This document shows, in pieces, positions 1,740 through 38,286 of a DNA stretch of 38,287 nt. Source of the DNA: Anaerolineae bacterium. Its GTDB lineage: Bacteria; Chloroflexota; Anaerolineae; Epilineales; Epilineaceae. Positions within the stretch are counted from its first letter, which is position 1; each line of letters begins with the position of its first letter. The DNA lies in contig JAJCYU010000209.1 of NCBI GenBank assembly GCA_029262755.1, positions 1-38,287 on the forward strand, in the 5' to 3' direction. The notes beneath the pieces are model-generated. The model did no database searches. It saw only the letters and a list, made by a program, of their open reading frames with translations, and was not told where the DNA came from. Both the position numbers and the translations under genes were made by a program.

Positions 1740-3341
1740 TCAGAGCGAGCCTCCGCCGTCGATGCGGACGCCGTTGCTCGGCTGCGTTTCGCCCGAGCCC
1801 GTGTTGGGCCCCATACGGAACTTGAAGATCCGACCCTGCCCGTCGTCGCCGGGCGTAATCTCGATCTTGTGGGCGCCGCCGATTCCGGGTTGCCCATCGA
1901 TCTCGGAAGGATCCGAACCGAAGAACCCGCGCAGATGGTTGCCCAGGCCGCGCATATGCGCACCTGCGCCCGAACCATCCTCGTCGAAGCGCAACTCCAA
2001 GGTCCCGACCTCGACGCCCAACCATCCCGCGTCGCCGCCGTCCGGTCGCTCGCCGAGCGTGATGGAGATCGTGCGCGGCTCTTCGTCGCCGCTGCGCGCA
2101 ACCGTCAGGCTGACCGTCGCGCCCGGACCCACACCTTCCAGCAGCGCAATGAGCTCGTCCGCGCCCGCCACCACTTGGCCGTCGACGGAAAGGATGACGT
2201 CGTGGGCGTTCAGACCCGCCGCGTGCGCCGGTCCTTCCTCGTTGAGGCCATGGACGACCGCGCCCTGGAGCACACCATCCGTCGCAAATGCATCCAACCC
2301 GTCTAGGTCGTGCATCTCAAACATGGAGCCGCCGAAGGGCATACCCTCCGGGCCGCCAAGCGACTCGATCGAGATGGTTGCGCCCAGCTGCACGCCGAGG
2401 AATGCCTTAGCGTCGTCGTCCGGATGGCTTCCAAGCACCGCGCTTATAGTGCGGCTCTCGCCTTCGTTCTCGCCTGCAACGGTAAGCGTGACGGTCTCGC
2501 CCGGCGTGTGGGCGGCGATCGCGGCAGCGAGCTCGTCGGAGGATGCGACCTCCGCGCCGTCGATGGCGGTGATCACGTCACCCTCGGCTAAGCCGGCGGC
2601 CTCCGCCGCGCTGCCCTCGACGACGCCCGCAACGAACGCCGTCTCTTGGTGCATCATGCTCTCCACATCGAGCATGTGGGGCATGGTCATGCCCATACCC
2701 ATGCCAAAGCCGCCGCACGGCGCGAAGCTCAGCAAGCCGGCGGAGCCCTCTTCATCCAACGTGAACGTCAGATCGCGCGCCTCGTCACCATGGGTCACAC
2801 TGAGCGTGATCTCGGCGCCGTCGCCTGCTTCGGCGAGCCGCTCGTGCAGCTGCGCCATGTCCTCGATCGCCTCGCCGTCGATCGCGGTGATCACGTCACC
2901 GCGCGCGAGCCCGGCCTCGGCGGCCGGCCCCTCCGGATCGACACCCGCGACGAGCACGCCCGGTTCGTTGTCGAAGGCGTGCGTGAAGCTGAGCATGGAG
3001 GCGGATGGCATGGCCATCAGCGAGCCGCCACCGGGCCCCGTGTGCATGCGCATGGTCCGCTTGTGCATCGTGCCGTCGCCGTGCGATTCGACCCACACGT
3101 CTTCTGCGTCACCGTCGGTATCGGCCTCGTCACCGTTGTCTGTCTGTTGTTGGGCCGCCGCGCCCGTCGCCGGTGATGCGGCGTCCTGACGGGCCAGCGC
3201 GCCGGAGATCGCGTCTCCGAAGCGCAGCGCAAAGCCGTCGTTCGCGCTGGCGCCGCGGCTGAGCATCAGCACACCGGCGCCGAGGGCCAGTGTAGACACA
3301 AGGCCCGTGAGGGCTCCGAAGAAAAAAGTCTTGGTTCGCAT
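1740..3341 (-). CDS. Exported or membrane-tethered protein with three HtrA/DegP-type PDZ domains and no protease domain (533 aa)
   Basis: N-terminus is basic then hydrophobic (MRTKTFFFGALTGLVSTLALGAGVLMLSRGASA; ASA is a possible signal peptidase site). Three PDZ signatures: GVLVAGVDPEGPAAEAGLARGDVITAIDG, AFVAGVVEGSAAEAAGLAEGDVITAIDG, GAVVHGLNEEGPAHAAGLNAHDVILSVDG. Carboxylate-loop-like AFLGV and GWLGV are present. There is an AAGGAG RBS upstream. Confidence 0.92.
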   Translation of the reverse strand: MRTKTFFFGALTGLVSTLALGAGVLMLSRGASANDGFALRFGDAISGALARQDAASPATGAAAQQQTDNGDEADTDGDAEDVWVESHGDGTMHKRTMRMHTGPGGGSLMAMPSASMLSFTHAFDNEPGVLVAGVDPEGPAAEAGLARGDVITAIDGEAIEDMAQLHERLAEAGDGAEITLSVTHGDEARDLTFTLDEEGSAGLLSFAPCGGFGMGMGMTMPHMLDVESMMHQETAFVAGVVEGSAAEAAGLAEGDVITAIDGAEVASSDELAAAIAAHTPGETVTLTVAGENEGESRTISAVLGSHPDDDAKAFLGVQLGATISIESLGGPEGMPFGGSMFEMHDLDGLDAFATDGVLQGAVVHGLNEEGPAHAAGLNAHDVILSVDGQVVAGADELIALLEGVGPGATVSLTVARSGDEEPRTISITLGERPDGGDAGWLGVEVGTLELRFDEDGSGAGAHMRGLGNHLRGFFGSDPSEIDGQPGIGGAHKIEITPGDDGQGRIFKFRMGPNTGSGETQPSNGVRIDGGGSL

Positions 3342-3567: not shown

Positions 3568-3618
3568 TACTTCGTCAAGCTTGCCCAGCTACCGCTGCGA
3601 AGCGCACAGCGGTTGGGA

Positions 3619-6600
3619 CTAGCGGCGCGGCCCCGGAGGCGGTGCGCCGCCCTGCCCGGGGCAGAGCGGGACACGCTGCGGAATGTACGGCGTGAAGATC
3701 GGCACACCTTCGAAGGCCTTGGACTCGTCGCCGGGCACGTCGGGCTCGCCGAGCGTGCCGCCGATGCGTTCCACGGCCACGGCGCCCAGGCCCACCAGGT
3801 TCCGCTGGAAGCGGCCCTGGTCGTCGAAGACGTCGTGTTCCCAGAAGGTTGCGCTGATGACCGCGCTGCCGAGGAAGCCCTGGCGGATAGCGCCCTGCGC
3901 GTTCAGGTCGATGTACTCGACCTGCTTCTCGTTGAGCTTCTGGCAGTAGTAATCCACAAGTCCGTTCTGGTCGTAGATATAGATCGCGTAGTCGGTGAAG
4001 CCCGGCTTCGGCACCAGGTTGGTGATCGCGAGCTCGCTGGTGATGCCGCGGTTGCCCTTGGCCAAGAGCGGGATGGCGATGACGGCCGAGCCGTCGGACA
4101 GACCACCCTTGCGCGAACCAATCTGCCAGTCGTAGGCCAGCTGCTCGGTCAACATGTTGTAGGCCACGGCTTCGCGGCGTTCTGTGCGAGCCGGGTCGCT
4201 CCACTTCTCGAGTATGACGATCGACTGAATGCGCGGTGGATCGACCAGCGGCGTACCACCGACCGTCCACTCCTGACTCTCGACGCGCGCACTGCCCACC
4301 CAGTTGCCCGGAATGCCCTCGATGACCGGCAGGAAGAAGACCTGCGTGCCGTGCGGACAGATCCAGTCGACCAGGGTGGTGATGATGTCGCCGGAGCGAT
4401 CCAGGAAGTAGACCTTTACCTTGGCGGCGTAGGTGCCGCTCAGGTTCTGGACCGCGATCGCGGTGTCCCAACCCTGGTACTCGGAGTAGGTCAGGGGCGC
4501 GTAGTTGATCTGCGAGCCGAGCGTGAAGAACTCATCCGCCGCCGGGATGTTCAACTCACCCGGGACGCCTCGGTAGCTGCTGAAGTGATTCGGGCCGAGT
4601 GTGTCGACCACCATCCCCAGCGGTTGGCTGCTGCGGATCCAGGCGCCACCGAGCCAGCCGGGGCCGATCACCGTGTTCGGGTCGAAGGAGACCGTCTCGC
4701 CCGGCGCCAAGCTGAGCACGTCGCCCAGGATCGGGCGCAAACAGTTGTCGATGCTGGTGAACCACAACTCCAACGAGGTGCAGCGGATGCCGGAATTGTG
4801 GATGTAGAGCGTGCTGTTGAGTTGCGCGACATCGGCGTAGACCAACGGCGCGTGATAGGTGTAGCCGCCGTCGACCGGGTTCTCGACCCCATGGGCGTCT
4901 GTCCCGATGCCGGTGTAGGCCGCGCTGACCGGCCGGTTCGGGTCCGTCGGATCGCCGCAGGTGCGGTTGACGCTCACGGCCAACGGCTGGCCGACGTGCT
5001 CACCGAAGTCGAGCTCGACCTGCTGCCCGACGCCGCCGAGCGGCCCGCGGAAGGTGCCGCCGTTGCTGTACGCCCGATCGAAGTCGAACCACCGTGCGTG
5101 ATTGCCCACGATCAGGTTGAAGAGCGACTCGCAGGCCAGCTGGTCGAAGGGCTTCTCGTTGCCATCCGGACCGGTCACAAGGTCCTGTGCGTTCATCGTG
5201 TAGACGATCGCGGATTGGCCACCCGGCGGCAACAGGTCGCTGGTGTAGGTCCAAGCGCTGCCCGGGCGCAATAGGCCCGTGCACTCGACCTTCAGCGGTC
5301 CCGCAGCCTGCGGCGGGCAAGCACCCGGCTCGCCCCAGATGACTAGGAATCCGGTGGTCGGCTCGGTGCCGACGTTCTGAATCTGGATCCAGGTCTCACA
5401 GTCGCCCGTTCCGAGCACCGGCAGCTGGAGGCGTGTGTCCGCCCCGCCGCAAGGCACGAAGAGGGTAACCGATGTCTCGGGCGCCGGCTCCACCGGCACA
5501 CAGGGCAGCGGTGTGAAGCCGGAGTTGACGGCTTCGGCCGTGGCCGTGGCGCCGTTCATCACCAGACCGCATTCGATCAGGTCTCCGTCGACCGTGTAGC
5601 TGAGGTTGACCGTCTCGCCCGGGCGCAGCGGCAGCTTCCCATCCGCGCCGCCTCGCAACGTGTCCGTGAAGACCACCATCGGCCACGGCTCGCGCGAGGT
5701 CTTGAGGGTGTCGGTGATGCGAATGCCTGTTAGGAAGGTGCTGCCGACATTGCTGACCTCGAGACAGAAGGTTACGTCGCGTCCGACCGGCACCTGCACC
5801 TGGCCGCCTCGGCCCGGGCACTCGCCGTTGACCGCAACCGTCTTCCGAATCTCCAGCCCGGCGCACTCGACTTGCGTGCTCTCGACCGTCTCGTTGTTGG
5901 AGAGGTCGGGGTCGAAGGTCGGTGTGCTCAAAGCCGGGAATTCGATGTTGTTCTCGCGCGTCTCGACGATCGCCCGGTTGTTGAGGACGCTTCCGCACTC
6001 GGCCGACTCGAGGACCATGACGCCGATCGTGACCGTGACGGCGTTGCCCGCATTCAGGCGGCCGCGCATCGTCGGGCCCATGCGCATCAGGCTCGGGTCG
6101 TTTCCGATCTGGACGGTGATCCGTCCGTCGTCGCGTACATCAACGAAGGCGTCCGGGTCACCCTGGACCTCGACCATGACCTGGGCTGGGTCGAGCGCAA
6201 CGCCCTCGTCGGGTAGCCAATCGACCAGGTAGACATCGGCCGCGTCCGCCATGCCGTCGTTGGTGACGACGACCTGGTAGGTGACCATGCCGCCCGGGCC
6301 GACCGGGTCGCATTCGAGGAAGCCGTCGCCGTCGTCCAGCACGTCGGTCTTGGTGACGCGCAGGTCGGCCTTGGCCTCGACGCGCGTGCACTCGGTGTCG
6401 AAGTTGTCCTTCACGCGGCCGTTGTCCGTGCGGCTGCCGATCTGAATGTCGTTGGCCGCCCAGAAGGGCCAGCCCGTCGCAATCGCGAAGGCCTGACAGG
6501 CGCTGCCCGCGCCGACGTCGCCGCGACCGTCCAGCAGGTAGCCTGGGTCGACATCGGCCACGAGGTAGAACTCGAAGACGTCGCCGGCCGCCAGCACACC

Positions 6601-9600
6601 CAGGTCCTCGAACATCACCATGTTGGTCATCGTGATTGCGTCGAGGCGGACGATCTGCGGCGTGTTTACGCCGTCGCCGGCCACCACGCTGCAACCGACC
6701 CTGTCATTCGGGTCCAGCGGCGCGCAATGGCTGAACTTGAAGCCGATGGGCAGTGTGTCCGTGATACGGACCTGGTCGGCGTCGGATGGCCCATTGGAGC
6801 CGAAGCGGACGCGATAGCGCTCGCGATCGCCGGCCATCACCGGGTCCGTCGTGTCCGTCTTGCTGATGAATACGCTGCTGCGGCGCACGATGGGGGTTGT
6901 CTCGAACTGCAGGTCATTTTCGGGACAGGGATCCTCGGTGCGGCTGGATACCTGCACGAAGAGCTCAAGGCTGATCATGGTGTCCGGCGGCGGCACGACA
7001 TCCGAGTCGATCTGCGCGACCAACAGGAAGCGCCACACATCCATGGCCGGCAACAACCCGGCCGGGTTGTCGGGCATCGTGCAGGTGAGCAGCTCCGGCG
7101 ACACCGGGTTCTCGACGCATACCGCGCCGATGGCGCCTGGCGCCTGACGGGTTTCGTAGCCCTCCGCGTCCACCGCGGCCAGACCGGCCGCTGCGGCGTT
7201 CGTCGTGGCGCCGCCCGCGCCGTCCAGCAGCACGGTCGTTACCGCGCCCGGCTCGATCCCGCCGCGCAGGCGCATACCCTCGGGCAGCTTCACCGTGACG
7301 CTCACACCGCGGGCGTCCGACTTGCCCGTGTTCGTGACCACGATGCCGTAGGTGACGATATCGCCCGCGATGGCCGGGTTCGGGCCGAGTGTGGCCATGC
7401 CCATGAACTCGCCCTCGGAGAGGACATCGAGCACCAGGTCGGCGCGGGTGTTGACGGTCGTCAGGTTGCTGACGTAGTTGTCGCCGTTGTCCAGGTCGAT
7501 GTGATCGCTGATGGCGTAGGCGTCGTTCTCGAGGATCGTGCCGTCACCCACGTCGGTGTTGATCGTCGACGTGATAGTCAGCGTTGCAACCTCGCCCGGC
7601 TGGCCGTCGCGCGGACTGCGCAGCAGGCCGATGCCGCAGGTGAGCTTGTCGATCGCGCTGCCGGACGTGCCGGTGTTGCAGCTGGTCGTCTCGGCACGCG
7701 GCGCGTCGAGGTGGTAGTCGGTGACCACGATGCCCGGGGGCAGGCGGTCGGTGAGCACCACGTTCTCCGCGTCGCTGGGGCCTTGGTTCACGACCACGAC
7801 CGTGTAGACCAACTCACCACCAGCCGTCACCTCGTCGATGATCGCGGTCATGCCGTTCGAGCAGCCGGTGTGGTTCTGACCCATAGCCGTCTTTGTGACC
7901 GCCAGGTCGGCGGCGTCGATGATCTGGTGCTCCACGTAAGCCTCGTTGTTCGACTGATCCGGATCTACGTCCAGGCTGGACACCGAGGCTACGTCGTTGA
8001 TGCTGGATGTCTGCTTGGCTGTCACGGCCAACTCGATCACCCAGCGCCCTGCGCTTGGGCCGAAGGGGCCGCCGAAGGTCTCGAGGTCGTCGTCCGAGAA
8101 CGGCGGCGAGCCGTCCGGCGTGTCCGGCAGCTCGCACGTTAGGGTCGCGCGCTCGACGATGTCCTCGATCAACGCGGCGCCCGGCGCACCGGCGCCGGCG
8201 TTCGGCACGGCCACGTCCAGCGCGCCGTCGTTCGGTGAGGTCACGCGGCAGACGGCCGTCGGGCGGTTGCCGTTGACGTCCGGATCGACCGCAACGATGT
8301 CGAAGAGCTCGCTGCTGACGATCTCGTCGGTCACCACCGTCCCGTGCGCGAAGCTCGGGCCGAGGTTGTCCACGATGATCGTGTAGGTGAGGATCTCGCC
8401 GGCGCGGACCCTGGCGTCCGGCTTGCCGAACTTGCGCACGCGCAGGTCGGCGACGGTGCGAATGTAGAGGTCCGCCGGGTCGCTGTTGTTGGCCAGGAAG
8501 CCGTCCGGCGTGTCGCTTGAGACGTGCGCGACGTTCGTGATGAGCGCGCCCGGCGCCACGTCCGGCGTTACGTCGAAGACCAGATCGAAGGTGTAGCGCT
8601 CGCCGTTGGCGAGTCGATTGTCCGGGGCCGGCAGCGGAACCTCACAGGTGATCAGGCTGCCCGCCTGGCTGCAGAAGTCATTCTGGTTGCGGAAGGCCAG
8701 GCCGGCCGGCACGGTGTCCGTGACAACCACGTTCAGCGCGTCGGAGGGACCATTGTTGAGCACGTCGATGCGGAAGCTGACTTCCTCGCCTGCCACCGGC
8801 GTCAGGTCGCTTGCGGTCTTCAGGATCGCCAGGTCGGCGTTCTGACCCACCCCGACGCTGGCATCCGCCGTGTTGTTGTCCGGACACGGATCCGCAGTAT
8901 CGCTGGACACCACGGCCGTGTTGTCGATCTGCGTCGTCGTCGCGTCCTCGTTGACCAGGGTGCGGATCAGGACCGTCACCGTCTGGCCGACGTCGACGGC
9001 GCCGAGCTCGCAGGTAACGAGGTTCGCGATGTCGACGCTGCAGCTGCCGACGCCGCCCACCACCTGGAAGCCAAGGTACGTCAGATCGGCGTCCAGCGTG
9101 TCGGAGATGACCACCGCCTGGGCGGTGCTCGGGCCGAGGTTGGTCACGCGTAGGGCGTACTCAAGCTGTTCGCCGGCCGTCACGGCGGTCGGCGTCGCGG
9201 TCTTGCTCAGCGCGAGATCCGCGGACGCGTCCACCAGGGTGATCGTGCTGGCGTAGTTCGCCGTGTTGTCGTCATCGAAGAGGTCGCTGGTGACGAAGAC
9301 GTCGTTCTCGAGCCGCGCGCCGTCCGGCACGCCCTCGGCAACCGACGCGGTCACGGTGAGGATGCGCTCGTCACCGACGGCCAACGTACCAAGGCCGCAC
9401 GTCAGCTTGTCGAGCGGGTTGCCCGGCGTGCCGGTGTCGCAGTCGCCGGCCGCCAGGCCGTCTCCGTCCACCACCGCGTAGTCTGTGACGACCACGCCCG
9501 GCGGCAGACGATCGACCAGCAGCACGTTCTCCGCCGTCGACGGGCCGCCGTTGACGACCGTCACAGTATAGAGCAGCGTCCTACCCGCGCTCACGCGGTC

Positions 9601-12600
9601 GGGCGTGATCGTATACAGCGGATCACAGCCTAGGTCGCGCACCTCGCCCGCCGACTCCTTGCTGACGCGCAGGTCGCTCACCTCGGTGACCTCATGCTGC
9701 GCAAATGCCTCGTTGTTGGCGAAGTTCTCGTCGTAGTCGTCGTCGCTGCTTACCGAGGCGACGTTGTTGATGCTCACGCCCTCGTCCGCTGTGACCACGA
9801 TCTCGATGATCCAACGGCCCTCGCCGTTCGGTGGGCCGAAGACCGGCAACTCGGTCAGCTCACAGCTGACCGTCGCGCGCTGGGAGATGTCGGTGATCAG
9901 CTCGGCGCCGACACCGCCGACCGCGTTAGCCGCGGTGACCGTCGTCGGGCTGCCGGAGGGTGCTTCGAGCACGCAGCTGGTAGAGCCCGCGAAGTCACCG
10001 GTGATATCCGGGTTGATGGAGACGATGTCGAATACACCGTCCGAGACGATCTCGTCAGTCACGACGACGCCGTGCGCGAAGCTCGGGCCGAGGTTGTCGA
10101 CGAGGATCGAATAGGTCAGCAGCTCGCCCGCGCGCACCGTGCCGTCCGGCTTCCCGAACTTCCGCACGCGCAGGTCGGCTGAGGTCTCGACAAAGGCACT
10201 TGCCACCGTCCGGTTGTTCCCGCTGTTCGGCGCACCCGGGTCGACCGTGTCGTCGGCCGTGGCCACAGACACCGTCGCCATATTCGTCAACCACGTCGGG
10301 TCGGGCACCGGGCCCACGCTCGGCGTAGCATCCGGATCGACCTCTACGGTCACGTCGAAGCTCGTCGATTGGCCGGCCGCGAGCGGCGGCAAGGTGCAGG
10401 TCAATGTGTCCTCCGGGCCTTCGACACAAGCATCGGTGTCGATCTCGAAGGTCACATCGGCCGGCAGGGTGTCGATCACGATCACGGGCGCGGTCGGATC
10501 GCTGTCCGACGGACCGAGGTTGGTGACCTCGAGCGTGTAGACCAGCTCGCGGCCCGCGATCGGTGTCACATCGCTCATGGTCTTGACGATCTCGAGATCG
10601 GCCAGCCGGAGCGCCGTGTGCGCGTTGACCGTGGTGTTGTCGGCCGTATCACAATCGCTCGTCGCGGCGTCCACGGTTGCTACGTTGTCCAGCACGAGCG
10701 CGTTCGCGCCGCCGGGGATGGCGTCGCTGTCAACCAGGGCGTCGATCTGGATCAAGGCGATCTCGCCTACGGCCAGCGCACCGAGGTCGCAGGCCACGTC
10801 GCCGTTGGCCAGAACCGTGCATGGTACGCCCACACCAAGCACCGTTGCCGCGTCGACCGTGACGCCTGCGGGGATATCGTCGGTCAACAGGACCTCCGTC
10901 GCCACACTCGGGCCGGTGTTGGTCACCGTCAGCGTGTAGCGGATGGCCTCGCCCGCGAGCACGCCATCGTCCGGCGTGTCGCTCTTGGAGACCACCAGGT
11001 CGGCGTTGGTGCCAACCACGGTGAGGTTGGAGTCGTAGTTGTTCGGGTTGAGCGGTTCGATGTTGTCGCTGATGGCGAAGGCATCGTTCTCGAGGATCGA
11101 GCCATCCGCCAGCGCCGGATCGACCACCGCGGTGATCGTCACGGTCTCCGTGCCGCCCACCGGGATCGAACCGAGGCCGCAGGTCAGCTTGTCGATGCCG
11201 CTGCCCGCCGTGCCCGTTTCGCAGCCACCGATGGTCGTCTCGTAGCCGGTGACCGTCACGCCGGCCGGCAGCCGGTCGATCAGGATCGCGTTCTCCGCCG
11301 TCGACGGTCCGAAGTTGGTGACCTGAATGGTGTAGGTCATACCGAGGCCGGCGGTAACCTGGTCGGTCACCGGTTCGATGAAGCATGCCTCGCCGACGAC
11401 CTCACCCACCGCCGTCTTCACGACCGCGATGTCGGAGGTGTCGAGGATCTCATGCTCGACGTAGGCCTCGTTGTTGGACGGGTCCGGATCGACGTCGAGG
11501 CTGCTCACGCTCGCCACGTCGTTGATGTCCTGCGTCTCGGGCGCCGTCACCACGATCTCGACCGTCCAGCGGCCATTGCTGCTGCCGGGATCGAAGGTGG
11601 CGAGTTGTGTATCGAGGCGACAGACGACCTCGGCGCGCTGGCTGAAGGTGCCGCTGGTCGGGTCGCAGCTCGCCGCTCCCCCAAAGTCCAGGCCGACATC
11701 GGCGTTGACGCTGACGATGTCGAAGACGCCATCCGAGACGATCTCGTCGGTCACGACCACGCTGTTGGCGAAGCTCGGACCGAGGTTGTCGACGATGATG
11801 GTGTAGGTAAGCAGTTCACCAGCGCGGACCGTCTCGTCCGGCTTGCCGAACTTGCGAACCCGCAGGTCGGCGATGGTCACCACACGGCCGAGCACCATGT
11901 CCATGCTGTTCTCGGCGTCCGGATCCGGCGTGGTGCTCGTCGCGAGCGCCGTATTCTTGACCAGCGTGCCAGGCGTGAGGTTCGGATCGACGTCGGCCAG
12001 GATGGTGAAGCTCTCCATCTGACCGGCGACCATCGTGCCGAATGTGCAGACCACCAAGTCAACGCCGCCCGGGCCGGCACCGGCCAAGATTTGGCAGGTC
12101 GGCGGTGTCGGGTCGGTGAGGACGGCCGTAATGCCCACGGGCAACGTGTCGGTGACCACCACGTTCTCCGCATCGCTCGGGCCGTCATTGGTGACGGAGA
12201 TCGTGTACTCGATCGTGCCGCCGGCGACCGGCTCGTTGGTGCTTGCCGTCTTATCGACCACCAGGTCGGCAACGGTGCCGATCTCGGTCGTCGCATCCGC
12301 CGTGTTGTCTGCAAGACACGGGTCCGTCGTGGCGCTGGTGACGCCGGCCACGTTGCTTATCGGCCCTGCCGGCGCGTCGGCGTCGACCTGACCGTTGATC
12401 ACGATCGTGACCACGGTGCCCGGCGCCAGATCACCCAACTCGCAGGTGATCGCGTCGGTCAGGCCCTCGGCACAGCTTCCAGCCGAACCAAAGACCTGCG
12501 CCGAGACAAAGGTGACGTCCGCGGGCAGGGTATCCGTGACGACCACGTCGCGCGCCAGCGACGGACCGGCGTTGGCCACCGTCAGCTGGTACTGGATCGC

Positions 12601-15600
12601 CTCACCCGCCGTGACGGCGGCCGGACCGGACTTGGTGATCGCCAGATCGGCGCGCGCCTTGGCCTGCGTGAGGTTGGAGACGTAGTTGTCGGCGTTGTCG
12701 TCGTCGAAGTTGTCGCTCAGGGCGAAGGCGTCGTTCTCGAGCCATCCGAGGTCCGGGTAGTCGAAGTCGACCAGCGCATTGACCGTCAGCGTCGCAGTAT
12801 CGCCTACATTCATGTCACCCAGGCCGCAGGTGAGCTTGTCGGCCGCGCTGCCCGGCGTGCCGGTGGCGCAGCGACCACGGTCCAAACTGTAGCCTACCAA
12901 GGTCAGACCATAGGGCAGCCGGTCGGTCAGCTGCACGTTTTCCGCGTCCGACGGGCCGGTGTTCGTGACCACGACGGTGTAGGTCAGCATGAGGCCGGGC
13001 GTCACCATGTCCGGCATCGGCAGCGGCGGTGCGCCACAGGCCTCCGGGCCGACCATACCAACGGCCGACTTGCTCACCTCGAGGTCGCTGACCTCGGTGA
13101 CCTCGTGCTGCGCCAACGCGGTGTTGTTGCTGTTGTCCGGATCGATGTCGCTGCTCGAGACGCTGGCGAGGTTGTTGATGTCCACGCCCTCATCGGCCGT
13201 GACCACGATCTCGACAATCCAGCGGCCGGATGTGGCCGGCGGGTCGAATACGGGCATGTCCTCGCCCAAGGCGCAGCGCACCGTGGCGCGCTGGTTGAGG
13301 TCGGTCTGCGGCGCGGGGGCGTTGAACAGGCCGTTGTTCGGCCCGTCGATCACGCAGGTCGGACCCGCGTAGTCACTGTTCACGTCAGGGTTGATCGAGA
13401 CGATATCGAAGACGCCGTCGCTGACGATCTCGTCCGTAATGGCCACGTTGTGCGCCCAACTCGGGCCGAGGTTGTCCACGATCAGCGTGTAGGTCAGCAG
13501 CTCGCCGGCGCGGACGCTGCCGTCCGGCTTGCCGAACTTCTCAATCCGCAGGTCGCTGACGCTCTCGACGAAGATGTCTGCGTCGTCGATGTTGTTGTCC
13601 GGGTTCGGATCCTCGGTTGCCAGCGGCACGGGAACCTCGGCCACGTTGACCGACGGGCCGAGCGGCGCGTTCTCGAGGACCGCGAAGGTGATCTCGAAGG
13701 TCGAGGACTCGCCTGCCGGCAGCTGACCGATCGTGCACGTCAGCTCGCCCGGCGCGGTCAGCGCACAGTCGTCGCTATCCACCAGGTACGCCAGCACCGC
13801 GGTGTCGAAGGTATCGACGACCACGATGTCGTCCAGGCTGCTGTTGTAATCCGATGGGCCGTCGTTCCAAACCGTGACCGAGAAGGTCACCTGCTCGCCG
13901 GCTACCGGCGTATTGTCCAGCACGGACTTCTCTGCTCGCAGGTCGGTGACGCGCTCGTACTCGACCGGCGCCAAGGCGCTCACGAAGGCTGCGTTGGAGC
14001 CCGCGGCCGCGGCCTCGTTCTCGCCGCTGATGGTGCCGTCCACGTCCCCGGGCGGGATGAGGTTCGGCGGCGCGAAGACCGTGAGCAGGACCTGGACACG
14101 CTCGCCGACCGGCATCGAGCCAAGCTGACACTCGACGATTGCGCTCGGGTTGCCCGGGTTGTCGATGACACAAGAGCCGCCGCTGCCCGCGGGCGAATCG
14201 AGCTGGCCGCGCAGGATCTGCCAGTCAGTGACCAGCAGGCCGGGGAAGGGGAGAATGTCGCCCACCCACACGTCCATGGCCACCGAGGGCCCATCGTTGA
14301 TCAGGAGGATCTCCACCGTCTGGGACTCGCCGGCCGCCAGCGCCGCGGGCTCGACCTCCTTCTCAATCGTGAGCACCGCCAAGCTCTCCACCGTCGACAG
14401 CGTCGAGGCGAAGTTGTTCGCGTTGTTGTCGTCGTACTCGTCCGAGGCCACGTGGACGTCGTTCTCCAGGATCGTGCCGTCCGGCAGGTCGGCGTCGATG
14501 TCCGCGGTGATGACGAAGGTCGCCGACTGGCCCGCGTCCAGCGTTCCGAGACCGCAGGTGAGCTGGTCGAAGGCGCTACCGGCCGTGCCGGTCTCGCAGC
14601 TCCCCAGACCCGCGTCGCCGCTCATGGCGGTGACGACGATGCCCGGCGGCAGCCGGTCGAGCACGGTGACGTTCTCGGCCGTCGACGGACCCAGGTTGGT
14701 CACCGACACGGTCCACTCGATGTCTTCGCCTGCAATCAGGCTGCCGCCGCTTTGGACCTTGTCGATCTCGAGGTCGGCGATGGTCGTCACGTCGTGCAGC
14801 ACCATCGCGCGGTTGTTGTCCTGATCCGGATCCTCGGCCTGGAGGCTGAGCACCGTGGCGGTGTTGTTGATCGACTGATCTTCGTCGGCGGTCACGACCA
14901 CCGTGAGGATGATCTGCTCGTAGACCGTGAGGTCGTCGACCGCGCAGGTCACGAGTACGTCGCCCGGACCGACACCGATGGCCGGGATGGCCAACGGTGC
15001 GCCGGCGGCGTCGAAGATACCGCCGTCGCACACGCCGCCCGTGTCGAATTCGACAATGTCGAAGACGTTGTCGCTGGACAGGATGTCCGTGATCAGGTTG
15101 CCGCGCGCCACGCTGGGCCCGAGGTTGTCGACCACGACCGTGTACGTCAGCAACTCGCCGGCGCGGACGTCCCCGTCCGGCTTGCCGTACTTCTTGATGC
15201 GCAGGTCGGCCAGCTGGGCCACAGCCACGGTCTCGTCGTCGCTGTTGAACAGCGCCGTGCCGTCAGCCAGCGTCCAACCGGTTTCCGCGGTGTTGGTGAT
15301 CGGGCCTTCGGCCGCCGCGTCCACCGCGACGACGATCTCGAAGGTGCCGCTCTCGCCCGGCAGGAGATCGCCGAGCGTGCAGGTCACCGGCGGACCGCCC
15401 GCGCAGGTGGCGGATGTGGCGTAGAGGTAGGTGAACTCGGCCGGCAGCGTGTCGGTCACGACGACCCCGTATGCGGTCGACGGGCCCGGGTTGGCCACCG
15501 TGATCTCGAAGGTGAGCGTGCCGCCCGCCACCGCGATCAGGTTGCCCTGCTCGTCGGTGCCCGCGGGCGTCTGGCTGCGCGAGACCGCCGTCTTGCTGAT

Positions 15601-24600: not shown

Positions 24601-27600
24601 GACCGCCACGTTCTCGGCGGTCGAGGTGCCGTTGTTGGTCACGCCGATCGTCCATTCGATGGTGCCGCCAGCGATCAGGTCGCCGCCGCTCTGGACCTTG
24701 CTGATCTCCAGGTCGGCGACCGTGGTCACCTCGTGCTGCACCAGCGCCTGGTTGTTGCTCTGATCCAGATCCTCGGCCTGCTGGCTGATCACCGAGGCCG
24801 TGTTGTTGATCGACTGGTCCTCGTCGGCCGTCACGATGACGTCGAAGATCACCTGCTCGTAGACCGCCATGTCGTCGATCACGCAGGTGAAGGCGACGTT
24901 GCCCGGACCGACCGTCGCCGGCGTGGCCAGCGAGACGCTGCTGCACGCGCCGCCGGTGTCGATGTCTTCGATGGTGAACACGCCGTCGGAGCTGAGCACG
25001 TCCGTGACCAGGATGCTGCGCGCCACGCTCGGGCCCAGGTTGTCCACGACGATGGTGTAGCTCAGGTTCTCGCCGGCGCGCACGCTGCCGTCCGGCTTGC
25101 CGTACTTGGTGATGCGCAGGTCGGCGATCTGGGCCACGGCGACCGTCTCGTCGTCGCTAGCCGTGCCGCCGCTTCCGGTGCCCGCGGGCGTGGCGTCGGC
25201 GCTCTCCCACGTGACCTCGGCCGTGTTGTCGATCGGGCCCTCGGCCGCGTCGTCGACCTCGACGGTGATCTCGAAGCTGCGGGTCTCGCCGGGCAGCAGG
25301 TCGCCCAGGTCGCAGGTGACCAGCTGCGCCGCCTCGCTGCACGTGGCGGAGGTGGCGTAGAGGTAGCTGTAGGCCGCGTCCAAGGTGTCGCTGACCGCGA
25401 CGTTGAAGGCCGTCGACGGGCCCTCGTTGGTGACGCTCAGCTCGTAGGTCAACGTGCCGCCGGCGACCGCGATCAGGTTGCCGAACTCGTCGGTGCCTGC
25501 CGGGGTCTGGCTGCGGCTGACGGCCGTCTTGGTGAGAGCGACGGCGGACTCGTTGACGACGGCGGTGGTTTCGGTGGTGTCGCTCGCGAACAGGAAGCCG
25601 ACGCTCACCCCAGACCCTGCGGTGCTTACGGTGCCAATTTCGTCGTCCAGTACGAATCCGTCCGGCGTGTTCGGATCGACCGCAAAGCTCAGCGTGAGGA
25701 TGCGGGAACCTTCCACCTCGATCGAGCCGACATCGCAGAAGACGTTAAATGTCACATGATCGGCGTTGCAGTCCGCCTCCCCGCCTGTTAGCCCGAAGGA
25801 CTGAAGCGTCAGGTAGGGCCAGTCGTCGGGCCCGATCGTGTCGTGGATGACCACGTTCGGAGCCGGAGATGGACCCGTGTTGAAGATGACGATCTCATAG
25901 GTGACGATCTCGCCGGCCACCACGGGATCCGGCTCGTCGGTCTTCGTAAGCTCCAACTCCGCGATCGCGAAAGTCTCGACCTCCGCCACGCTGTAGTTGT
26001 TCGCGATGGTCGGGTCGAAGGTGTCGGCCGTGGCCAGCGCGCCGTTCTCCAACTCGGTGAAGTTCGGCACCTCGGCGTCGATCCACGCCGTGTACGTCAC
26101 CACGGCCGTGGCGCCCGCGTTCAGCGTGCCCAGGCCACAGGTCAGCTCGTTGGCCGGGGTGAGCGAGCAGCTCCCCGTGCCGGCCGGATCGCTGACGACG
26201 GCCGTGATGCCGGGCACGTCGACGTTGAGCTCCGGCGGGATCTGGTCGGTGAGGACCACGTTCTCCGCCTGCGAAGGACCGTTGTTGGTGGTCGTCAACG
26301 TGTAGGTGACGATGTCGCCGCCGTGGATGGGATTGCCCACCGTGGCCGTCGTGGCCACCAGGCCGTTCACGCGCTTGTCCAACGCGAGGTCGGCCGTGGC
26401 TTCGATGCGCAGGGCGCGGTCGACGCAGTTGTTGCCGATGTCGGCGTCCAGGCCGTCGGCCACGACGCAGGCCTGGTTGTTGAGCGAGATCGCGTCCTGG
26501 GCCGAGGCGACCACCACGATCTCCCAGCGCCCGAACTGATCGAGCGTGCCGAGGTCGCAGCGGAAGTTGAATTCGAAGTTCGGCCCGCCGGTCGGCGTGC
26601 CGATGGCGGACGGCGCCGCGGCGGCGCAGGCGCCCATGGGCGCGCCGCCGACCGTCGACGTGATCGCCTCGACCACGTAGGGACCGCTGGCGATCATCGT
26701 GTCCGTCACGATCAGGTTGCCGGCCGTGGAGGGGCCGAAGTTGTCCACGAGCACCGTGTAGGTGACCGTGTCGCCGGCGGATGCCTCGTTGTCGGGCTTG
26801 ACGAACTTCTGGATGCGCAGGTCATAGCCGGAGCCGACGATGACCTCGATGGCGTCCGTGTTGTTGTCCGTGTTCGGGTCCGGCGTCTCGGAGCCCACCG
26901 TCGCCGTGTTGGTGAGCGCCGTGCCGTCCGGCACGTCCGCGTCCACCGTCGCGTCGATCGTGAAGCTCGTCATGCCGCCCGGCGGCAGGTCGCCAAGGCT
27001 GCAGATCACCAGCGGCGGGCCGCTGGCGTCGCAGTCGCCGCCCGTGGAGTCGGTCAGATAGGTCACGCCAGAGGGCAGCGTGTCGGTCACGGTGACCGTC
27101 ATGGCCGCCGACGGACCGAGGTTCGTGACCTTGATCGTGTAGCGGACCGTCTCGCCGGCGGTGGGCATGTTGTTGTCCACCGTCTTCTCGATGCGCAGGT
27201 CGGCGCCCAGGGCCACCGCAGTATCGGCCGTGGCCGTGTCGTTGGTGTCACAGGGGTCCACGGTGTCGGTGGTCACGGTGGCGATGTTGCTCAGCGTGCC
27301 GCCGGTGGTCGCATCCACCTGGCCGCGCAGCGTGATGCGCACGACGTCGCCGGGCATCACGTTGCCCAGCTGGCAGACCACGGTGCCGGTAGTCGTCTCG
27401 GCGCAGGTGCCGCCGGCGCCGACGATGCTGCTGCCGGTGAAGCTCACGCCCGCCGGCAGCGTGTCGACCACCTCGACGTCCTCGGCCATCGACAGGCCGG
27501 TGTTGGTGACCGTCAGGCTGTACTCGATGCCCGTGCCCGCGAGCACGGTGGCCGGCGCGTCCTTGGCGATGGCCAGGTCCGCGCGCGGCTGCAGGGTGGA

Positions 27601-30600
27601 GATCTGCGAGGTGGCGTTGTTCGCATTGTTATCGTCGAAGGAGTCGCTGCTTACCGTGACGTCGTTCTCGAGCACGCCCTCACCCAGATCGGCGTCCGCC
27701 AGCGCGCTGATGGTGACCACCGCGCTCGCGCCGACGGCCAGCTCGCCCAGGCCGCAGGTGAAGCGGTCGAGCGCGCTGCCCGGCGTGCCGGTGGCGCAGC
27801 TGCCCTGGTCGGCCGTGTAGCCGAGCACCGTGATGCCGGCCGGCAGCCGGTCCACGAGCACGACGTTGTCGGCCGTGGATGGGCCGCTGTTCGTGGCCGT
27901 GAGCGTGTAGGTGATCAAGCCGCCGGGGGTCACGTCGCCGATGGAGGCGAAGACCGTGCCGGCGCAGTCGTTCGGACCCAGCTGGCCGATGCTTGTCTTG
28001 CTGACCGAGAGATCCGCCACGGCCGTGACCTCATGCTGCACGAAGGCCGTGTTGTTGCCGAAGTCCGGGTCCAGGTCGTCGCTGGAGACCCGCGCGTAGT
28101 CGTTGATGTCCATCGCCTCGGAGGCCGTGACGGCCACCAGGATGGTCCAGCTGCCCTCGCCGTTGGAGGGGTCGAAGACCGGCATGTCGTCCGCGCCGAG
28201 CGAGCAGACCACCTGCTGGCGCGTGGGCGAGATGACGATGACGCTGCAGCTTTCCGTCGTGTAGGTGTCGCCCACGTCCGCATCGGCCACGGCGGTGCTG
28301 AAAGGGCCGTCCGCCACGATGTCGTCCGTGACCACCACGCCGTGCGCGAAGCTCGGCCCCAGGTTGTCCACGATGAGCGTGTAGGTCAGCGTCTCGCCGG
28401 CGGCCACCTGGCCGTCCGGCTTTCCGAACTTGAGCACGCGCAGGTCGGCGTGGGCCTCCACGAAGGTGTCCGCGTCGTCGAAGTTGTTCGCGGTGTTGGG
28501 ATCGGTCGTGGCCGGCGGCTCCGGCACTGTGGCGCTGTTGGTCGTCAGGCCGAGCGGCGCGTCCTCGAGCACGCGGAAGGTGACCCGGAACGTCACGCTG
28601 CCGCCCGCCTGGAGTGTGCCGATGGTGCAGCTGAGCACGCCCGGTACGGTGACACTGCAAGAGTCCGTATCGGAGAGGAACTCCAACACGGCCGCATCGT
28701 AGACGTCGGTCAAGACGATCGCGCCGCTGCCGGGATCGACGTTGTAGTCCGAGGGACCGTCGTTGGAGACGGTGATCTCGAAGGTGACCTCGTCGCCCGC
28801 GATGATCGTGGGGTCGAGCGCGGTCTTCTCGACGCCGATGTCCGTGACTCGGGTGATCGTTTCGGTGTGCGAGTCCGTATCGCCGTCAGCGTTCGAGGCG
28901 GTCGCGATTACCGAGTTTCCGACCGTGGTGTCCCCGGAGATGACGGCGGGGGGCACCGCGTCCGGGCGCACGCGCACGTGCAACGTGATGTGCACCACTT
29001 CCCCGACCGGCATGGCCCCGAGCTGGCAGTTGACACCTAAGCCGCCGAGCGTGCAGGCGCCGCCCTGACCCGCCGTGGTAATGCCCACACCACGGGCGAT
29101 GCTCGTGCCCAGCAGCTCGTAGACGGCCGGCAGCGTGTCCTCGACCGTCACGTCGTACGCCACGGCACTGCCGAGGTTCTCGACGGTCAGCAGGTAGTCC
29201 ATCTCGTCGCCCGCGGCAACCGGGTTCACGCTCGGGCTCTTGGAGACACCGATCTCTGTGAACGAGTTCACGATCGAGATCGTGCTCGCCTGGTTGTTGC
29301 TGTTGTCCGGGTCGAAGGCGTCGGAGCCCGCCCAAGCGTCGTTCTCGAGCACGGTGTCGTCGGGCAGGTCGGAGGGGATGCTCGCGGTGAGGATCGCCGT
29401 CGCCGTCTCGCCCACGGCCAGCGTGCCGAGGCCGCAGCGGAAGAGGTCCGCCGGGTCGCCCGGCGTGCCCGTGTCGCACGAGGCGAGCGAGACGTCGCCG
29501 CCCACCGCCGTCAGCACGATGCCCGGCGGGAGGCGGTCGAAGAGGGTGGAGTTGGGCGCCGTGGAGTCGCCGATGTTCGTCACCGTCACCGTCCACTCGA
29601 CGGTGCCGCCGGCCATCAGGTCGCCGCCCGACTGCGTCTTCGTGATCGCGAGGTCCGCCTCGGCGTCCACCGACAGCACCGCCATCGCCTGGTTGTTGCT
29701 CACATCGGGGTCGGCCGCGTCGGAGGCGATCGTGGCCGTGTTGGAGATCTGCTGCGCCTCGTCGGCCGTCACGCCGATGGTGAAGACGAGCTGTTCGTTG
29801 GGCGCGATGCTCGTGATGTCACAGGTGATCGTCGCGTTGCCGGGGCCGGCCGCGGCCGGCGTGGCCGGCGTCGTGGCGGCGCAGACGCCCTCGGGGTCGA
29901 TGCCCGTGATGGTGAAGGCGCCGTCGGAGCTGATCACGTCCGTGATGATCACGCCCGTGGCCACGCTCGGGCCCCAGTTGTCGACGACGACCGTGTAGCT
30001 GATGGTCTCGCCCGCGGCAACGCTGCCGTTCAGGCCGTACTTCTTGACCGCCAGGTCCGCCACGGCGTCCAGGTTGACCGTCTCCAGGTCGGCGGCGGAG
30101 CCGCCGCTGCCCGTGCCCGCCGCGGTGGCGTCCAGGCTCTCCCACGTGACGGTCGCCGTGTTGTCGAGCGTGCCGCTCGCGGCCTCGTCCACCTCGACGG
30201 TGATCTCGAAGCTCAGGCTCTGGCCCGGCAGCAGGTCGCCCACGTCGCAGGTGACCAGCTGCGCCGCCTCGGTGCAGGTGGCCGAGGTGGCGTAGAGGTA
30301 GCTCAGGTCGGCGTCGAGCAGGTCGGTGACCTGGAGGTTGAAGGCCGTGGAGGGCCCGTCGTTGCTCACGTCGATGCGGTAGGTCAGGTCGCCGCCCGCC
30401 GTCGGCGTGGCGTCGAGGGCGGTCTTCGTGATGCCCACGTCGGCCAGGTGGTCGACGGTGGTGTCCTCGGTGATGTCGGTGAAGGGGCCGAGCGCTATGG
30501 GCGAATCAACATCGAGCGCAAGGACATCGTCCAGGATCGTACCGGCCGGCGTGCTCGGATCCAGCGCGAAGGTCAGGAAGATCGCACGGTTCTCGCCGAC

Positions 30601-33600
30601 CGACAGGTCGCCCAGATCGCATTGCACGCTGTAGGTCACCGGCTCCGCGAAGCATCCCGCGCCGGCGCCACCGGTAATCTCGGCAGCCAGTAGGGTCAAG
30701 AAGGGCCAATCGTCGGCGCCGACGATGTCAATCAGCCGCACGTTTCGCGCAGTCGAGGGCCCCGAGTTCGTCACATTGACGATGTAGGCAACGGTCTCCC
30801 CGGCCACCACGGGGTCGAGCGTGTCGACCTTGCTTATGGTCATCGTCGACAGCGCGGCCACCGTCGTCGGCTCATTCACGTTGTTGTTGCCGTTGTTCGG
30901 ATCGAAGGTGTCCGCGGTGGCCAGCGCGCCGTTCACGATCACGCTGCCGTCCGGCACGTCCGCATCCACGAGGGCCGTGATGGTCACGGTGCCGCTCGCG
31001 CCCACGGCCAGCGTCCCGACGCCGCAGGTGACCTGCTGGCGCCCGTCGCCGAAGGTCTCGACCGTGCAGCTGGGGCCCGCCACGCCGAGCACGTTCAGCT
31101 CCGGCGGCAGCAGGTCCATGAGCACGACATTCTCCGCCGTCGACGGCCCGCCGTTGGTCACGTCCACGGTGTAGGTCACCGTCTCGCCGGCCGTCACCGG
31201 GTCCGGGTCGTCGCTCTTGGTCACGACCAGGTCGGCCTCGGCCGTCACCTGGATCGCGCCCGCGGCGAAGTTGTTGCTCGTGTCGCCGTCGACGGCGTCG
31301 CTGAAGACTAAGGCCTCGTTGTTGAGCGAGATCGCCTCGTCGCCGGCCTCGGCCACCACCACGACCTCCCAGCGCTCGAAAGCCGCCAAAGAGGCGAGGC
31401 TGCAATCCACCTCGGCGCGATAGTTCGGGCCCACCGTGTCGGTGGCCAGGCCGGGCGCGGTGGTGCATGCGCCACCCTGGTTGTCCGTCACGGCCACCAG
31501 CTGGTAGAGGCCGTCGGAGACCATCACGTCGGTGATGCGCACATTGGCCGCGGCGGACGGCCCGAAGTTGTCGACGATGAGCGTGTAGGTCACCAGGTCG
31601 CCGGCCGCCACGGAACCGTCCGGCTTCACGAACTTCTGGATGCGCAGGTCCGCCGCGCCGTTCAACGCGGTGAGCAGCGTGTCCGAGTCGTTGGCCGCGT
31701 TCGGGTCGTCGACGGTCGGCGAGTCCACCTCGACGACGTTGGTCAGGAAGTCACCCGAGGCGTCCTCGGCCACGTTCACGGTGATCTCGATCACCACGCT
31801 CTCGTCCGGATCCAGCGCCAGCGGGCCGCATTCCACCACGCCCGTGCTGGGCTCGCTGCACACGGCGCCGGAGGCGAAGACGAAGGTGGTGCCCGCCGGC
31901 AGGGTGTCCGTCACCAAGGCATCGGAAACCGCGCTGGGGCCGTCGTTCGTCACGACGATCTCGTAGGTCAGGCTCTCGCCGGCCACCGCCGGATTCGGCT
32001 CGGCCGTCTTGCTCACGCCGAGGTCGGCGCTGGCCTGGACGGAGGTCGCCTCGCTCGCCGTGTTGTTCGTGTCATCGGTCTCGCCGCCGTCCGAGGAGAC
32101 GCCGGCCGTGTTGGTGAAGACGTCGGTGCCGGCCGGGGTGGCCGGATCGACGAAGGTGTCGAGCAGGATGGTGCGGGTGTCGCCCGCGTCCAAGGTGCCG
32201 AGCGAACAGCTCAGGAAGGAGGGCAGGGCGAAGCCGCAGCTCTCGGTTCCCGTGCCGCCGATCACGTTCACGCCCACGAAGCTCAGCGCAGCGGGCAGGG
32301 TGTCGGTCACCACCACGCCCGTGGCCGCGGAGGGCCCGGCGTTGCCCACCTGGATGACGTATTGCAGGGCCGCGCCGGCCGTGACCGGGTCCGGCGTGTC
32401 GCTCTTGGCGATCACCAGGTCCACCTCGGTCTGGACCGTCACACAGGCCTGCGCGAAGTGGTTCGTCGAATCGTCGTCGAAGGCGCCGCTGGAGGCCATC
32501 GCGTCGTTGCACAGCAGCGTGCCGGAGACGATGTCCGTGGCCACGGGGCCACTGATGGTGATGGCGCGGCTCTCGCCGTCCGCCAGAGTGCCGAGCTGAC
32601 AAGTAACCTTGCCGCCCGCGCCGAGCGTGCAGCTGCCGCTGGGCGAGGCCGAGGCGCCGGTGGGCGAGATGCCGGTGGGCATCTGGTCCATGACCACCAC
32701 GTCGGGCGCCGCGGAGGGGCCCGTGTTGGTGACCTGCAGCGTGTAGGTGATGGTGCCGCCGGCGATCTTGACGGGCTCGTCCGTGCTCTTGCTGAGCGCC
32801 AGATCGGCCGAGGCCGTGATCTCGCGCTCGGCCATGGCCATGTTGTTGGTCATGTCCGGGTCGTCGCCGTCGTGGTCGACGGTCGCGGAGTTGTTGAGGC
32901 TGATCGCCTCGTCCGCCACCGCGGTGACCTCGACGATCCACGTGCCGTCCTGGGCGGCGTTGTCCGGCGCCAGGAAGGGCAGCGTACAACTGATGCTCAG
33001 CTGGTTGCCCGCGGAGGGCACGTCCGGCGGGCTGGGCGGCGTGCAGGCCTCGCCCGTCTGGTTGCTCAGAACGTCCGCATCGATGCCGGTGACGCGGAAG
33101 GCGCCGCTGGCCACCATCAGGTCGTTCAGGAAGACGTCCGCGGCCGTGCTGGGGCCCAGGTTCTGCACCACGAGCGTGTAGGTGACGGTCTCGCCCGCCA
33201 CGATCTCGCCGTCCGGCTTGCCGAACTTGGTGATCTTGAGGTCCGCCGTGGCATCCAGGTTGGTGACGGTGGGCGGCGGGTCGTTGTTGGCCGGGTTCGG
33301 GTCGGGGATGCCGGAGAGGCTGCCGACGCCGACCGCGTTGCTGACGGAACCCGCCGCGTCGTCGTCAATCTCGACCACGATCTCGAAGCTCAGGCTGCCG
33401 CCCGCGGCGACGGCGAGCGGGCTGCAGATCACTTCGTCCGCGCCGCCCGGGCCGGTGCCCGCGCTCAGCACGCAACTGGGGTGCGTGGCGTAGAGGAAGG
33501 TCGCCTCGAGCGGCAGCACGTCCACCACCTCGGCGTCGGGCACGTCGGAGGGCCCGTTGTTGACGACGGTGACGGCATAGGTCAGCTCACCGCCCGGAAC

Positions 33601-38286: not shown

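Follow-up and report, generated by a model that had tools for sequence, protein, structure and literature searches.

Contig JAJCYU010000209.1 of a metagenome-assembled genome (MAG; GenBank assembly GCA_029262755.1) from an Anaerolineae bacterium carries a giant gene of at least 11,555 codons, whose visible product consists of 79 tandem DUF11 immunoglobulin (Ig)-like domains followed by a conserved C-terminal domain of 630 residues, which we call the tail. The window that we analyzed (38,287 nucleotides, nt) is the entire contig, C209 of this MAG, and the open 5′ edge of the giant gene is the contig end. The gene is a genuine, uninterrupted coding frame for a protein built as Ig-like beads on a string. 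The reading that we favor, and hold with moderate confidence, is that this protein is a Sec-exported surface fiber of about 0.3 μm made by an uncultured, filamentous-type Chloroflexota bacterium in a biofilm. The gene itself is not of a new kind, as the principle of such a stalk is already known from the fiber proteins GhlA and GhpA; the record length is new, and the most useful by-product of the analysis is the unannotated family defined by the tail.

An unbroken frame of at least 11,555 codons

The MAG comprises 428 contigs totaling 5.06 Mb (N50, 15.7 kb; 66.8% GC), with a completeness of 84% and a contamination of 0.7%. The giant gene and its two main parts lie on C209 as follows.

3619..38286, minus strand: giant open reading frame (ORF), 11,555 codons plus a stop codon at 3619-3621; 5′ end cut by the contig end at 38287
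5512..38280, minus strand: array of 79 tandem DUF11/TIGR01451 Ig-like domains (amino acids [aa] 3-10925), found with Pfam, NCBIfam, and a hidden Markov model (HMM) of the protein's own repeats
3622..5511, minus strand: conserved C-terminal tail domain (aa 10926-11555), 630 residues, all-beta multi-sandwich, 12 Cys

Over the 34.7 kb of the giant gene, the five other frames contained between 22 and 518 stops, and 100 mononucleotide shuffles of the same stretch gave a mean of 247 stops with a longest open stretch of 469 codons. The GC contents at codon positions 1, 2, and 3 were 64, 49, and 92%, a typical coding signature. The visible protein has a mass of 1.18 MDa and an isoelectric point (pI) of 4.05. 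A first-pass annotation made from the letters alone had described an ORF of at least 11,555 codons encoding more than 1 MDa and still open at the edge, and this description was correct; the only stop is the one at 3619-3621. On the plus strand, ORFs as long as 1,829 codons also run antisense to the giant gene at 3613-38286 (for example, 10369-15672), in a frame with 22 stops; they arise from the 92% GC at third codon positions of the giant gene and are not second genes.

Seventy-nine DUF11 domains form the stalk

Searches with Pfam DUF11 (PF01345) returned 76 significant stretches (37, 35, and 4 in three pieces of the protein), with scores of 2040, 1870, and 135 bits against a cut-off of 24.6. 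The NCBIfam model TIGR01451 scored 241 and 119 bits (cut-off, 24), and the Pfam matches that overlapped DUF11 belonged to the related families DUF7507, DUF7619, DUF7927, and CARDB. An HMM built iteratively from the giant's own repeats resolved exactly 79 domains (independent E values from 3.6e-10 to 5e-44) of 100 to 173 residues (median, 126). The spacers between them had a median of 7 residues, and 47 of the 78 were exactly that long. The approximate count of 79 domains and their almost linker-free arrangement, both proposed in the first-pass annotation, are thus borne out.

Although mean column identity over the 79 repeats was only 23%, residues G16, N27, G29, S31, and D40 and two Cys were each kept in at least 90% of them, and 62 of the 79 domains contained exactly two Cys. 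One 4-domain unit was modeled:

18091..19776, minus strand: 4-domain unit (domains 47-50), modeled as four consecutive beta-sandwiches (predicted local distance difference test [pLDDT], 88.1; predicted template-modeling score [pTM], 0.65)

The best Foldseek matches of this model were legs of adhesins and integrins (Ig-like domains of PrgB, 8beg, E of 2e-25; integrin alpha chains; mastigoneme; antigen I/II). When the 79-domain profile was compared with PDB sequences, three matched at E ≤ 0.01, and the sole non-integrin among them was GhpA (9flp; E of 2.2e-13). Complex prediction with three copies of a two-domain unit gave a score of 0.00 and a mark of 0.42, which bears neither way on assembly of the fiber.

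In the consensus of the 79 domains, ADLxIxK recurred where domains start and DPxxxNN where they end, and a conserved DLxxxK ... NN pattern was seen. The model for isopeptide-forming fimbrial domains (TIGR04226) reached 71.9 and 41.7 bits over whole pieces of the protein (cut-off, 30), with no single stretch above the cut-off. The junction motifs and these summed scores are a hint that the domain junctions may hold isopeptide bonds within the molecule or Ca2+ sites. The RTX hallmark of giant adhesins exported by type I secretion systems (T1SS) was absent: the 11,555 residues contained no GGxGxD motif and no HemolysinCabind match. The only match to LPx[TSA]G lay in mid-protein, at residue 5820, far from the C-terminus, and the last 100 residues carried no sortase signal. 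No dockerin (PF00404) was found in the giant protein.

The array is a hierarchy of 4-domain and 12-domain blocks

Much of the stalk is organized at a higher level, which had not been noticed in the first-pass annotation:

7462..31650, minus strand: super-repeat core (domains 18-75), a 12-domain unit of ~4.95 kb present about 5 times (nt identity, 70-76%) and itself built of 4-domain units

Amino acid identity averaged 31% between neighboring domains (maximum, 45%), 41% between domains four apart, and 49% between domains twelve apart (maximum, 78%). The best DNA self-matches extended over 1 to 2.3 kb at 70-76% identity, with offsets of 4,935 to 5,001 and 9,888 to 9,951 nt. Dissimilar neighbors together with high identity at block distance are the pattern expected from block duplication. 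Tandem-domain proteins tend to avoid similar neighbors, and the pattern of this array agrees with that tendency.

The first-pass annotation had also stated that equivalent repeats differ at many synonymous sites while the protein sequence is kept, and had cited as its example a peptide that occurs twice in the giant protein:

25486..25518, minus strand: SRSQTPAGTDE, first copy
15550..15582, minus strand: SRSQTPAGTDE, second copy, with 4 synonymous differences in 33 nt from the first

The example is correct, but it is a best case, given that repeats twelve apart are only 49% identical on average. Among aligned identical residues of such pairs, 682 of 2,270 (30%) used a different codon. Pooled Nei-Gojobori estimates over the 32 pairs of domains that lie twelve apart and share 50% identity or more gave proportions of synonymous and nonsynonymous differences (pS and pN) of 0.41 and 0.28 and a ratio of nonsynonymous to synonymous rates (dN/dS) of 0.59, an upper-leaning estimate because the 92% GC at third positions compresses dS. 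Purifying selection between repeats therefore appears to be present but moderate, weaker than had been claimed. The stronger case for a working gene is the unbroken frame together with the fold-defining residues retained in every repeat.

Sequence support for the repeat array

The synonymous differences between equivalent repeats had been taken in the first-pass annotation as an argument against an assembly artifact, a conclusion that holds for collapse but leaves copy number unproven. Repeat collapse is unlikely because the longest exact internal repeat is 31 to 34 nt, with none of 35 nt or more, and because the best long self-matches are only 70-76% identical; near-identical stretches at super-repeat offsets reach 39 nt only. 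In-frame mis-joins at homologous words, in turn, would keep the frame open, so that an intact ORF alone is no proof of copy number.

Among public runs containing window words there was one only, a biofilm metagenome that held 97% of the sampled words, and no RNA run. This run is probably the source sample and hence not independent. Its Logan contigs covered positions 18288-38287 in 30 of 30 bins at a depth of 4 to 13, mostly 5 to 8, and the eight pieces listed measured 1.1 to 3.6 kb (none longer) with 0 or 1 mismatches. Of the 72 Logan contigs on the examined stretch, 48 fit only partly. One Logan contig contained an odd joint from 23131 to 18288 (4,844 nt, out of frame, with 59 letters on the short side), which no similarity inside the window explains; either a variant or an artifact of clipping at the start of the compared stretch may have produced it. 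Four other joints, with sides of 20 to 22 letters, were disregarded.

The tail defines a family of secreted proteins

The tail, which was absent from the first-pass annotation, had no match in Pfam (E ≤ 0.1), in NCBIfam (E ≤ 0.01), or among PDB sequences (E ≤ 1). Its AlphaFold model was all-beta (pLDDT, 85.5; pTM, 0.89), and Foldseek found no global match to this model in the PDB (whole-model TM of ~0.1). Structural comparison with VIA-align, which barely covered tail residues 1-206 and 442-630, delimited one sub-domain:

4558..4893, minus strand: tail sub-domain (tail residues 207-318), TM1070/ASRT-type beta-sandwich by VIA-align

Here, TM1070 (1nc7_A) aligned over 100 residues with a Z score of 12.7 and a root mean square deviation (rmsd) of 2.0, and the Anabaena sensory-rhodopsin transducer (ASRT; 2ii7_A) aligned over 97 residues with a Z score of 8.8 and an rmsd of 3.2. 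Residues ~331-450 resembled sandwiches of the carbohydrate-binding-module (CBM), FlgD, or GOLD-like types (Z of 6 to 7.7). The ESM Atlas returned unnamed clusters, plus DUF5719 and ASRT as leads only.

Sequence searches with the tail found a widespread family. This genome contained 21 matches at E ≤ 1e-30. Among 40 relatives sampled, each of the 34 other genomes that belong to the same order carried the tail (2 to 30 matches each), and none of the 6 that represent other families of the class did. Of 121 candidate stretches in a scan that took one genome per species, 111 encoded a relative; of the 73 loci kept, all but three came from records titled Ardenticatenales, Caldilineae, Anaerolineae/Anaerolineales, or Ca. 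Epilinea brevis, and the remainder from the unclassified "bacterium UCB3" and a bin labeled Gammaproteobacteria. The latter locus (L020; CAVZRD010000004.1), the sole one of the 73 with a non-Chloroflexota label, holds a tail-family gene of 52% identity on a 142-kb contig of the bin "uncultured Gammaproteobacteria," which is probably mislabeled. A filter-free search of 1.84 billion representatives returned 764 tail matches at E ≤ 1e-3 and 329 at E ≤ 1e-30. In their sources, tail-family proteins are named "hypothetical protein" or after their other domains.

An alignment of 76 members, which are 46-68% identical to the query, contained 88 invariant columns, including 10 Cys. The family is recognized by its 10 invariant Cys and by motifs such as GPLKVECTG, YSEYQGWD, and FWEHDVFD within ~600 aa at or near the C-terminus of secreted proteins, and the giant conforms to this description. 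Signal-peptide-like N-termini (basic-hydrophobic-AxA), judged by eye without a predictor, were seen in all nine paralogs inspected, including those on contigs C44, C205, C384, C403, C275, C259, and C284. In the paralogs, the signal peptide is followed by a varied part (an NHL propeller, CHRD, DUF7948, 0 to 24 DUF11 domains, or nothing) and then by the tail; one tail subclass carries a proprotein-convertase P-domain after the tail, and minimal members consist of a signal peptide and the tail, with or without the P-domain. Four proteins of ~1,900 to 2,050 aa (P0001, P0002, P0011, and P0014) contain three consecutive copies of the 600-aa tail domain. Tail-family genes often stand two in a row on the same strand, as on C108 (2-3502 and 3445-18084) and C205 (2-3274 and 3558-10229) and in loci L004, L006, L008, L019, L027, L028, L036, L042, L045, and L051, an arrangement that suggests local tandem duplication of whole genes.

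The nearest paralog, on C44, is a complete protein of 4,834 aa that is 49% identical to the giant and colinear with its residues 7587-11542; the giant looks like a C44-type protein with an amplified stalk. Between the two, dN/dS was 0.32 in the tail (619 codons) and 0.60 in the stalk (1,629 aligned codons), and by this measure the tail is the most constrained part of the protein. A paralogous DUF11 giant of 5,629 aa with 30 domains (locus L078; C237, 19459-36345, minus strand) ends in a dockerin (E of 1.6e-4) instead of the tail; its first 1,500 residues had no Pfam match. Directly upstream of it lies a 5′-open DUF11 ORF of 1,951 aa (C237, 36917-42769, minus strand).

The tail was found in none of 2,759 other candidate proteins of 5,500 to 17,500 aa, the longest other tail-bearing frames being 5,489, 5,246, and 5,155 aa. 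Among 461 scored candidates for DUF11-rich proteins of 5,500 to 17,500 aa, 55 matched at E ≤ 1e-20, and the longest had 7,647 aa. Within the limits of these word-based searches, the giant is the longest DUF11 protein found.

The first-pass annotation had proposed extending the contig to reach the N-terminus. This yielded no overlapping contig: none of the 21-, 31-, and 55-mers taken from its final 200 nt recurred in any other of the 428 contigs, no Logan contig of the biofilm metagenome run passed the window end, and no C44-like N-terminal region was found on other contigs of the 84%-complete MAG. The 3′-open DUF11 fragments on C236, C296, C62, C239, and C101 were considered as the missing N-terminal part, but they are only ~35-38% identical to the giant and are not assignable to it.

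A probable surface fiber and its alternatives

We infer that the giant protein would be exported, that its tail would act as an anchor, and that it would function as an adhesive appendage. In this model, the 79 disulfide-stabilized Ig-like beads, joined head to tail, would form a stiff, acidic stalk that was lengthened as blocks, first of 4 and later of 12 domains, were duplicated in tandem, a route that would keep neighbors dissimilar (~31%). The tail, as a module common to a family of secreted proteins of this order, would be the cell-proximal end, docking noncovalently to a multilayered envelope via its CBM-like sub-domains. The missing N-terminal part would comprise a signal peptide and a variable distal binding head, as in GhpA and GhlA, with a possible role in adhesion or in cell-cell or prey/particle capture. 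For GhlA, ~180 nm divided by 49 domains gives 3.7 nm per domain, and 79 domains would then span ~290 nm; the scale of more than 300 nm that had been estimated at roughly 4 nm per Ig domain is thus reasonable. A proximal tail and a distal N-terminus are favored because the family shares its C-terminus and varies at its N-terminus, because the dockerin of the C237 paralog occupies the same place as the tail, and because GhpA has this polarity. The placement of the functional tip in the missing N-terminus, put forward in the first-pass annotation, is plausible by analogy with GhpA and with the architecture of the paralogs, although the 630-aa C-terminal domain could itself be the functional end.

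Several points weigh against a fiber anchored by its tail. The N-terminus, signal peptide, and head of the giant lie beyond the contig, and no extension was found. The local sequence is confirmed, but the long-range order of the blocks rests on one low-depth (~7×) short-read assembly. At 630 residues, the tail far exceeds known sorting or anchoring tags; its modeled fold matches only single generic beta-sandwiches (Z of 6 to 12.7), which point to no function; and the minimal members, with a signal peptide and a tail, fit a tail that is functional on its own no less well than one that only anchors.

The polarity might also be the reverse, with the N-terminus as an uncleaved membrane signal anchor, the variable N-terminal domains near the cell, and the tail as a distal, carbohydrate-binding adhesive head. 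We regard this as the less probable orientation, though a serious one. GhlA is reported to have an N-terminal hydrophobic stretch of 19 residues, predicted to be transmembrane, and no signal peptide (bioRxiv 10.1101/2025.08.19.671072; PMC13319060); if it is a transmembrane anchor, the N-terminus would be proximal in the nearest Chloroflexota example, a further point against the orientation that we favor. The CBM-like and ASRT/TM1070-like sandwiches in the tail, the existence of the minimal proteins, the position of the tail as the most conserved part, and the three tandem tail copies in some proteins, which would be odd for an anchor, all agree with a distal tail. On the other hand, the N-termini of the paralogs resemble cleavable signal peptides with AxA-type sites (by eye), and the N-terminus is distal in the structurally solved analog GhpA. 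Moreover, when surface proteins of one family share a terminal module, its usual role is sorting or anchoring, and a dockerin stands at the same C-terminal place in the C237 paralog.

Two further explanations concern the nature and the size of the protein rather than its orientation. It seems unlikely to us that the protein has a structural or matrix role, whether as part of an outer proteinaceous layer or sheath around the filament or as a released biofilm-matrix protein, with the tail forming a lattice or cross-linking polysaccharide. In favor of such a role, the sample comes from a biofilm, Litorilinea is described as having an outermost layer around all cells of a filament, tail copies are many per genome, the protein is strongly acidic, and neither a covalent anchor nor an RTX motif was found, the one LPxTG-like match being in mid-protein. 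Yet stalks and adhesins, and not known lattice proteins, are built as rods of tandem Ig-like domains like the 79 found here, and the one Chloroflexota DUF11 giant examined by experiment, GhlA, makes discrete polar fibers. It seems more improbable still that the size is an artifact, in which super-repeat blocks of one or several shorter, C44-like paralogous genes (~5,000 codons) were joined at homologous short words so that copy number was inflated. Such joining would be eased by the low depth (~5-8×) and fragmentation of the MAG and by the in-frame words of 31 to 39 nt shared at super-repeat offsets; it could account for the partly fitting Logan contigs and the odd joint, and it would agree with the lengths of all other tail-bearing frames (≤5,489 aa) and of other DUF11 proteins in the 5,500 to 17,500 aa range (≤7,647 aa). 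However, an assembly at k ≥ 35 has no graph ambiguity when no exact repeat reaches 35 nt, each super-repeat copy is unique (24-30% nt divergence) and covered by contigs with 0 or 1 mismatches, and depth is even across the 20 kb compared. Furthermore, C44, as the closest paralog, is only 49% identical in protein and so cannot be the source of the blocks, and the odd joint is out of frame and off the repeat period.

Neighboring genes

Two further genes follow the giant gene in the window.

1740..3341, minus strand: downstream gene at a distance of 277 nt from the giant's stop; its 533-aa product has a hydrophobic segment at the N-terminus and three PDZ domains
1..1695, minus strand: downstream gene for a HAMP/HisKA sensor kinase, truncated where the contig starts

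All HtrA/S41-type NCBIfam matches of the PDZ protein were far below their cut-offs and covered the PDZ parts only, and no protease domain was found in it. The two genes were considered as conserved partners of the tail family and rejected, as neither had a homolog (tblastn, E ≤ 1e-10) in 84 loci (73 tail-family loci elsewhere and 11 stretches of this genome). Neither gene had a second copy in this genome at E ≤ 1e-20. No sigma-70-like promoter or intrinsic terminator was found within 1600-3800.

Implications

As filamentous bacteria, Chloroflexota abound in biofilms, sludge, and sediments, and little is understood of how their envelopes and surfaces are structured; the link between a DUF11 giant and a visible appendage, GhlA, was made only recently. 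The unannotated tail unites a large family to which such fibers belong and offers a target for studies of surface attachment and for a Pfam-type family definition. A bolder and still tentative reading is that the tail marks a previously unrecognized, order-specific surface-display system of monoderm Chloroflexota that docks 2 to 30 different secreted proteins per genome onto the unusual multilayered envelope, with the giant as an extreme cargo. Under this reading, the tail would be a large multi-sandwich module, rich in disulfides and CBM/ASRT-like, and would do the job performed elsewhere by the T9SS (type IX secretion system) C-terminal domain (CTD), by SLH domains, or by dockerins; the giant would be the longest DUF11 fiber yet seen, at least 1.2 MDa and ~0.3 μm or more in one polypeptide; and recent block amplification would tune the reach of the appendage.

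Comparison with known systems

Ebh of Staphylococcus aureus, SiiE of Salmonella, MpIBP of Marinomonas, and LapA are (near-)megadalton single polypeptides in which tandem beta-sandwich repeats extend a binding region. They differ from the giant in their repeat families (FIVAR/GA, BIg) and in their export by T1SS with RTX and a C-terminal signal, or in a C-terminal membrane anchor. Giant genes of Omnitrophota and others are far larger: metagenome-derived ORFs of up to 85,804 aa are described as implicated in attachment, with many transmembrane regions and SecA-like domains (bioRxiv 10.1101/2023.11.21.568195). The giant differs from them in its domain content and has a simple DUF11 architecture. 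Giant genes are reported to be frequent in Anaerolineae, and DUF11 proteins to be a recognized class of "huge proteins."

The stalk that characterizes the grappling-hook fibers of GhpA and GhlA is present in the giant, with its 79 domains, its median spacer of 7 aa, and its 4-domain model at a pLDDT of 88.1. GhpA of Aureispira sp. CCB-QB1 (PDB 9flp) is a protein of 5,898 aa with 52 Ig-like repeats and intramolecular disulfides whose monomer spans a 240-nm fiber; it forms a heptamer with a distal N-terminal hook (residues 26-1402) and a cell-proximal C-terminal T9SS sorting/anchoring end (bioRxiv 10.1101/2024.01.29.577165). The likeness lies in the monomer-long stalk of Ig-like repeats, and GhpA was the only non-integrin PDB sequence matched by the domain profile of the giant, although only one GhpA domain matches DUF11 well. 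In contrast to the giant, GhpA belongs to a diderm bacterium of the Bacteroidota, and genes for a PorP/PorE-like basal body adjoin its gene. The giant has no T9SS sorting domain and no PorP/PorE-like neighbors; its tail belongs to no Pfam or NCBIfam family, and its neighbors encode the PDZ protein and the kinase.

The closest known counterpart is GhlA (WP_141610714.1) of Litorilinea aerophila, a protein of 6,596 aa with 49 DUF11 domains that forms hook-tipped polar fibers of ~180 nm; it was identified by 26 peptides in mass spectrometry, and a bundle of three strands was fitted into a 6.4-Å cryo-electron microscopy (cryoEM) map (bioRxiv 10.1101/2025.08.19.671072; PMC13319060). We set GhlA beside the giant by this published description. 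Both come from the same phylum (Chloroflexota; Caldilineae for GhlA), and both are single giant polypeptides made almost entirely of consecutive DUF11 Ig-like beads; fiber length scales with domain number, and the GhlA host is regarded as monoderm, so that no T9SS or outer-membrane basal body is involved. The giant exceeds GhlA in length at least 1.75-fold (at least 11,555 versus 6,596 aa; 79 versus 49 domains), and it ends in the 630-aa tail, which GhlA probably lacks (0 of the 2,759 candidates of its size range). The gene shows this principle of construction carried further, to at least 79 domains and 1.2 MDa, in a relative that is uncultured.

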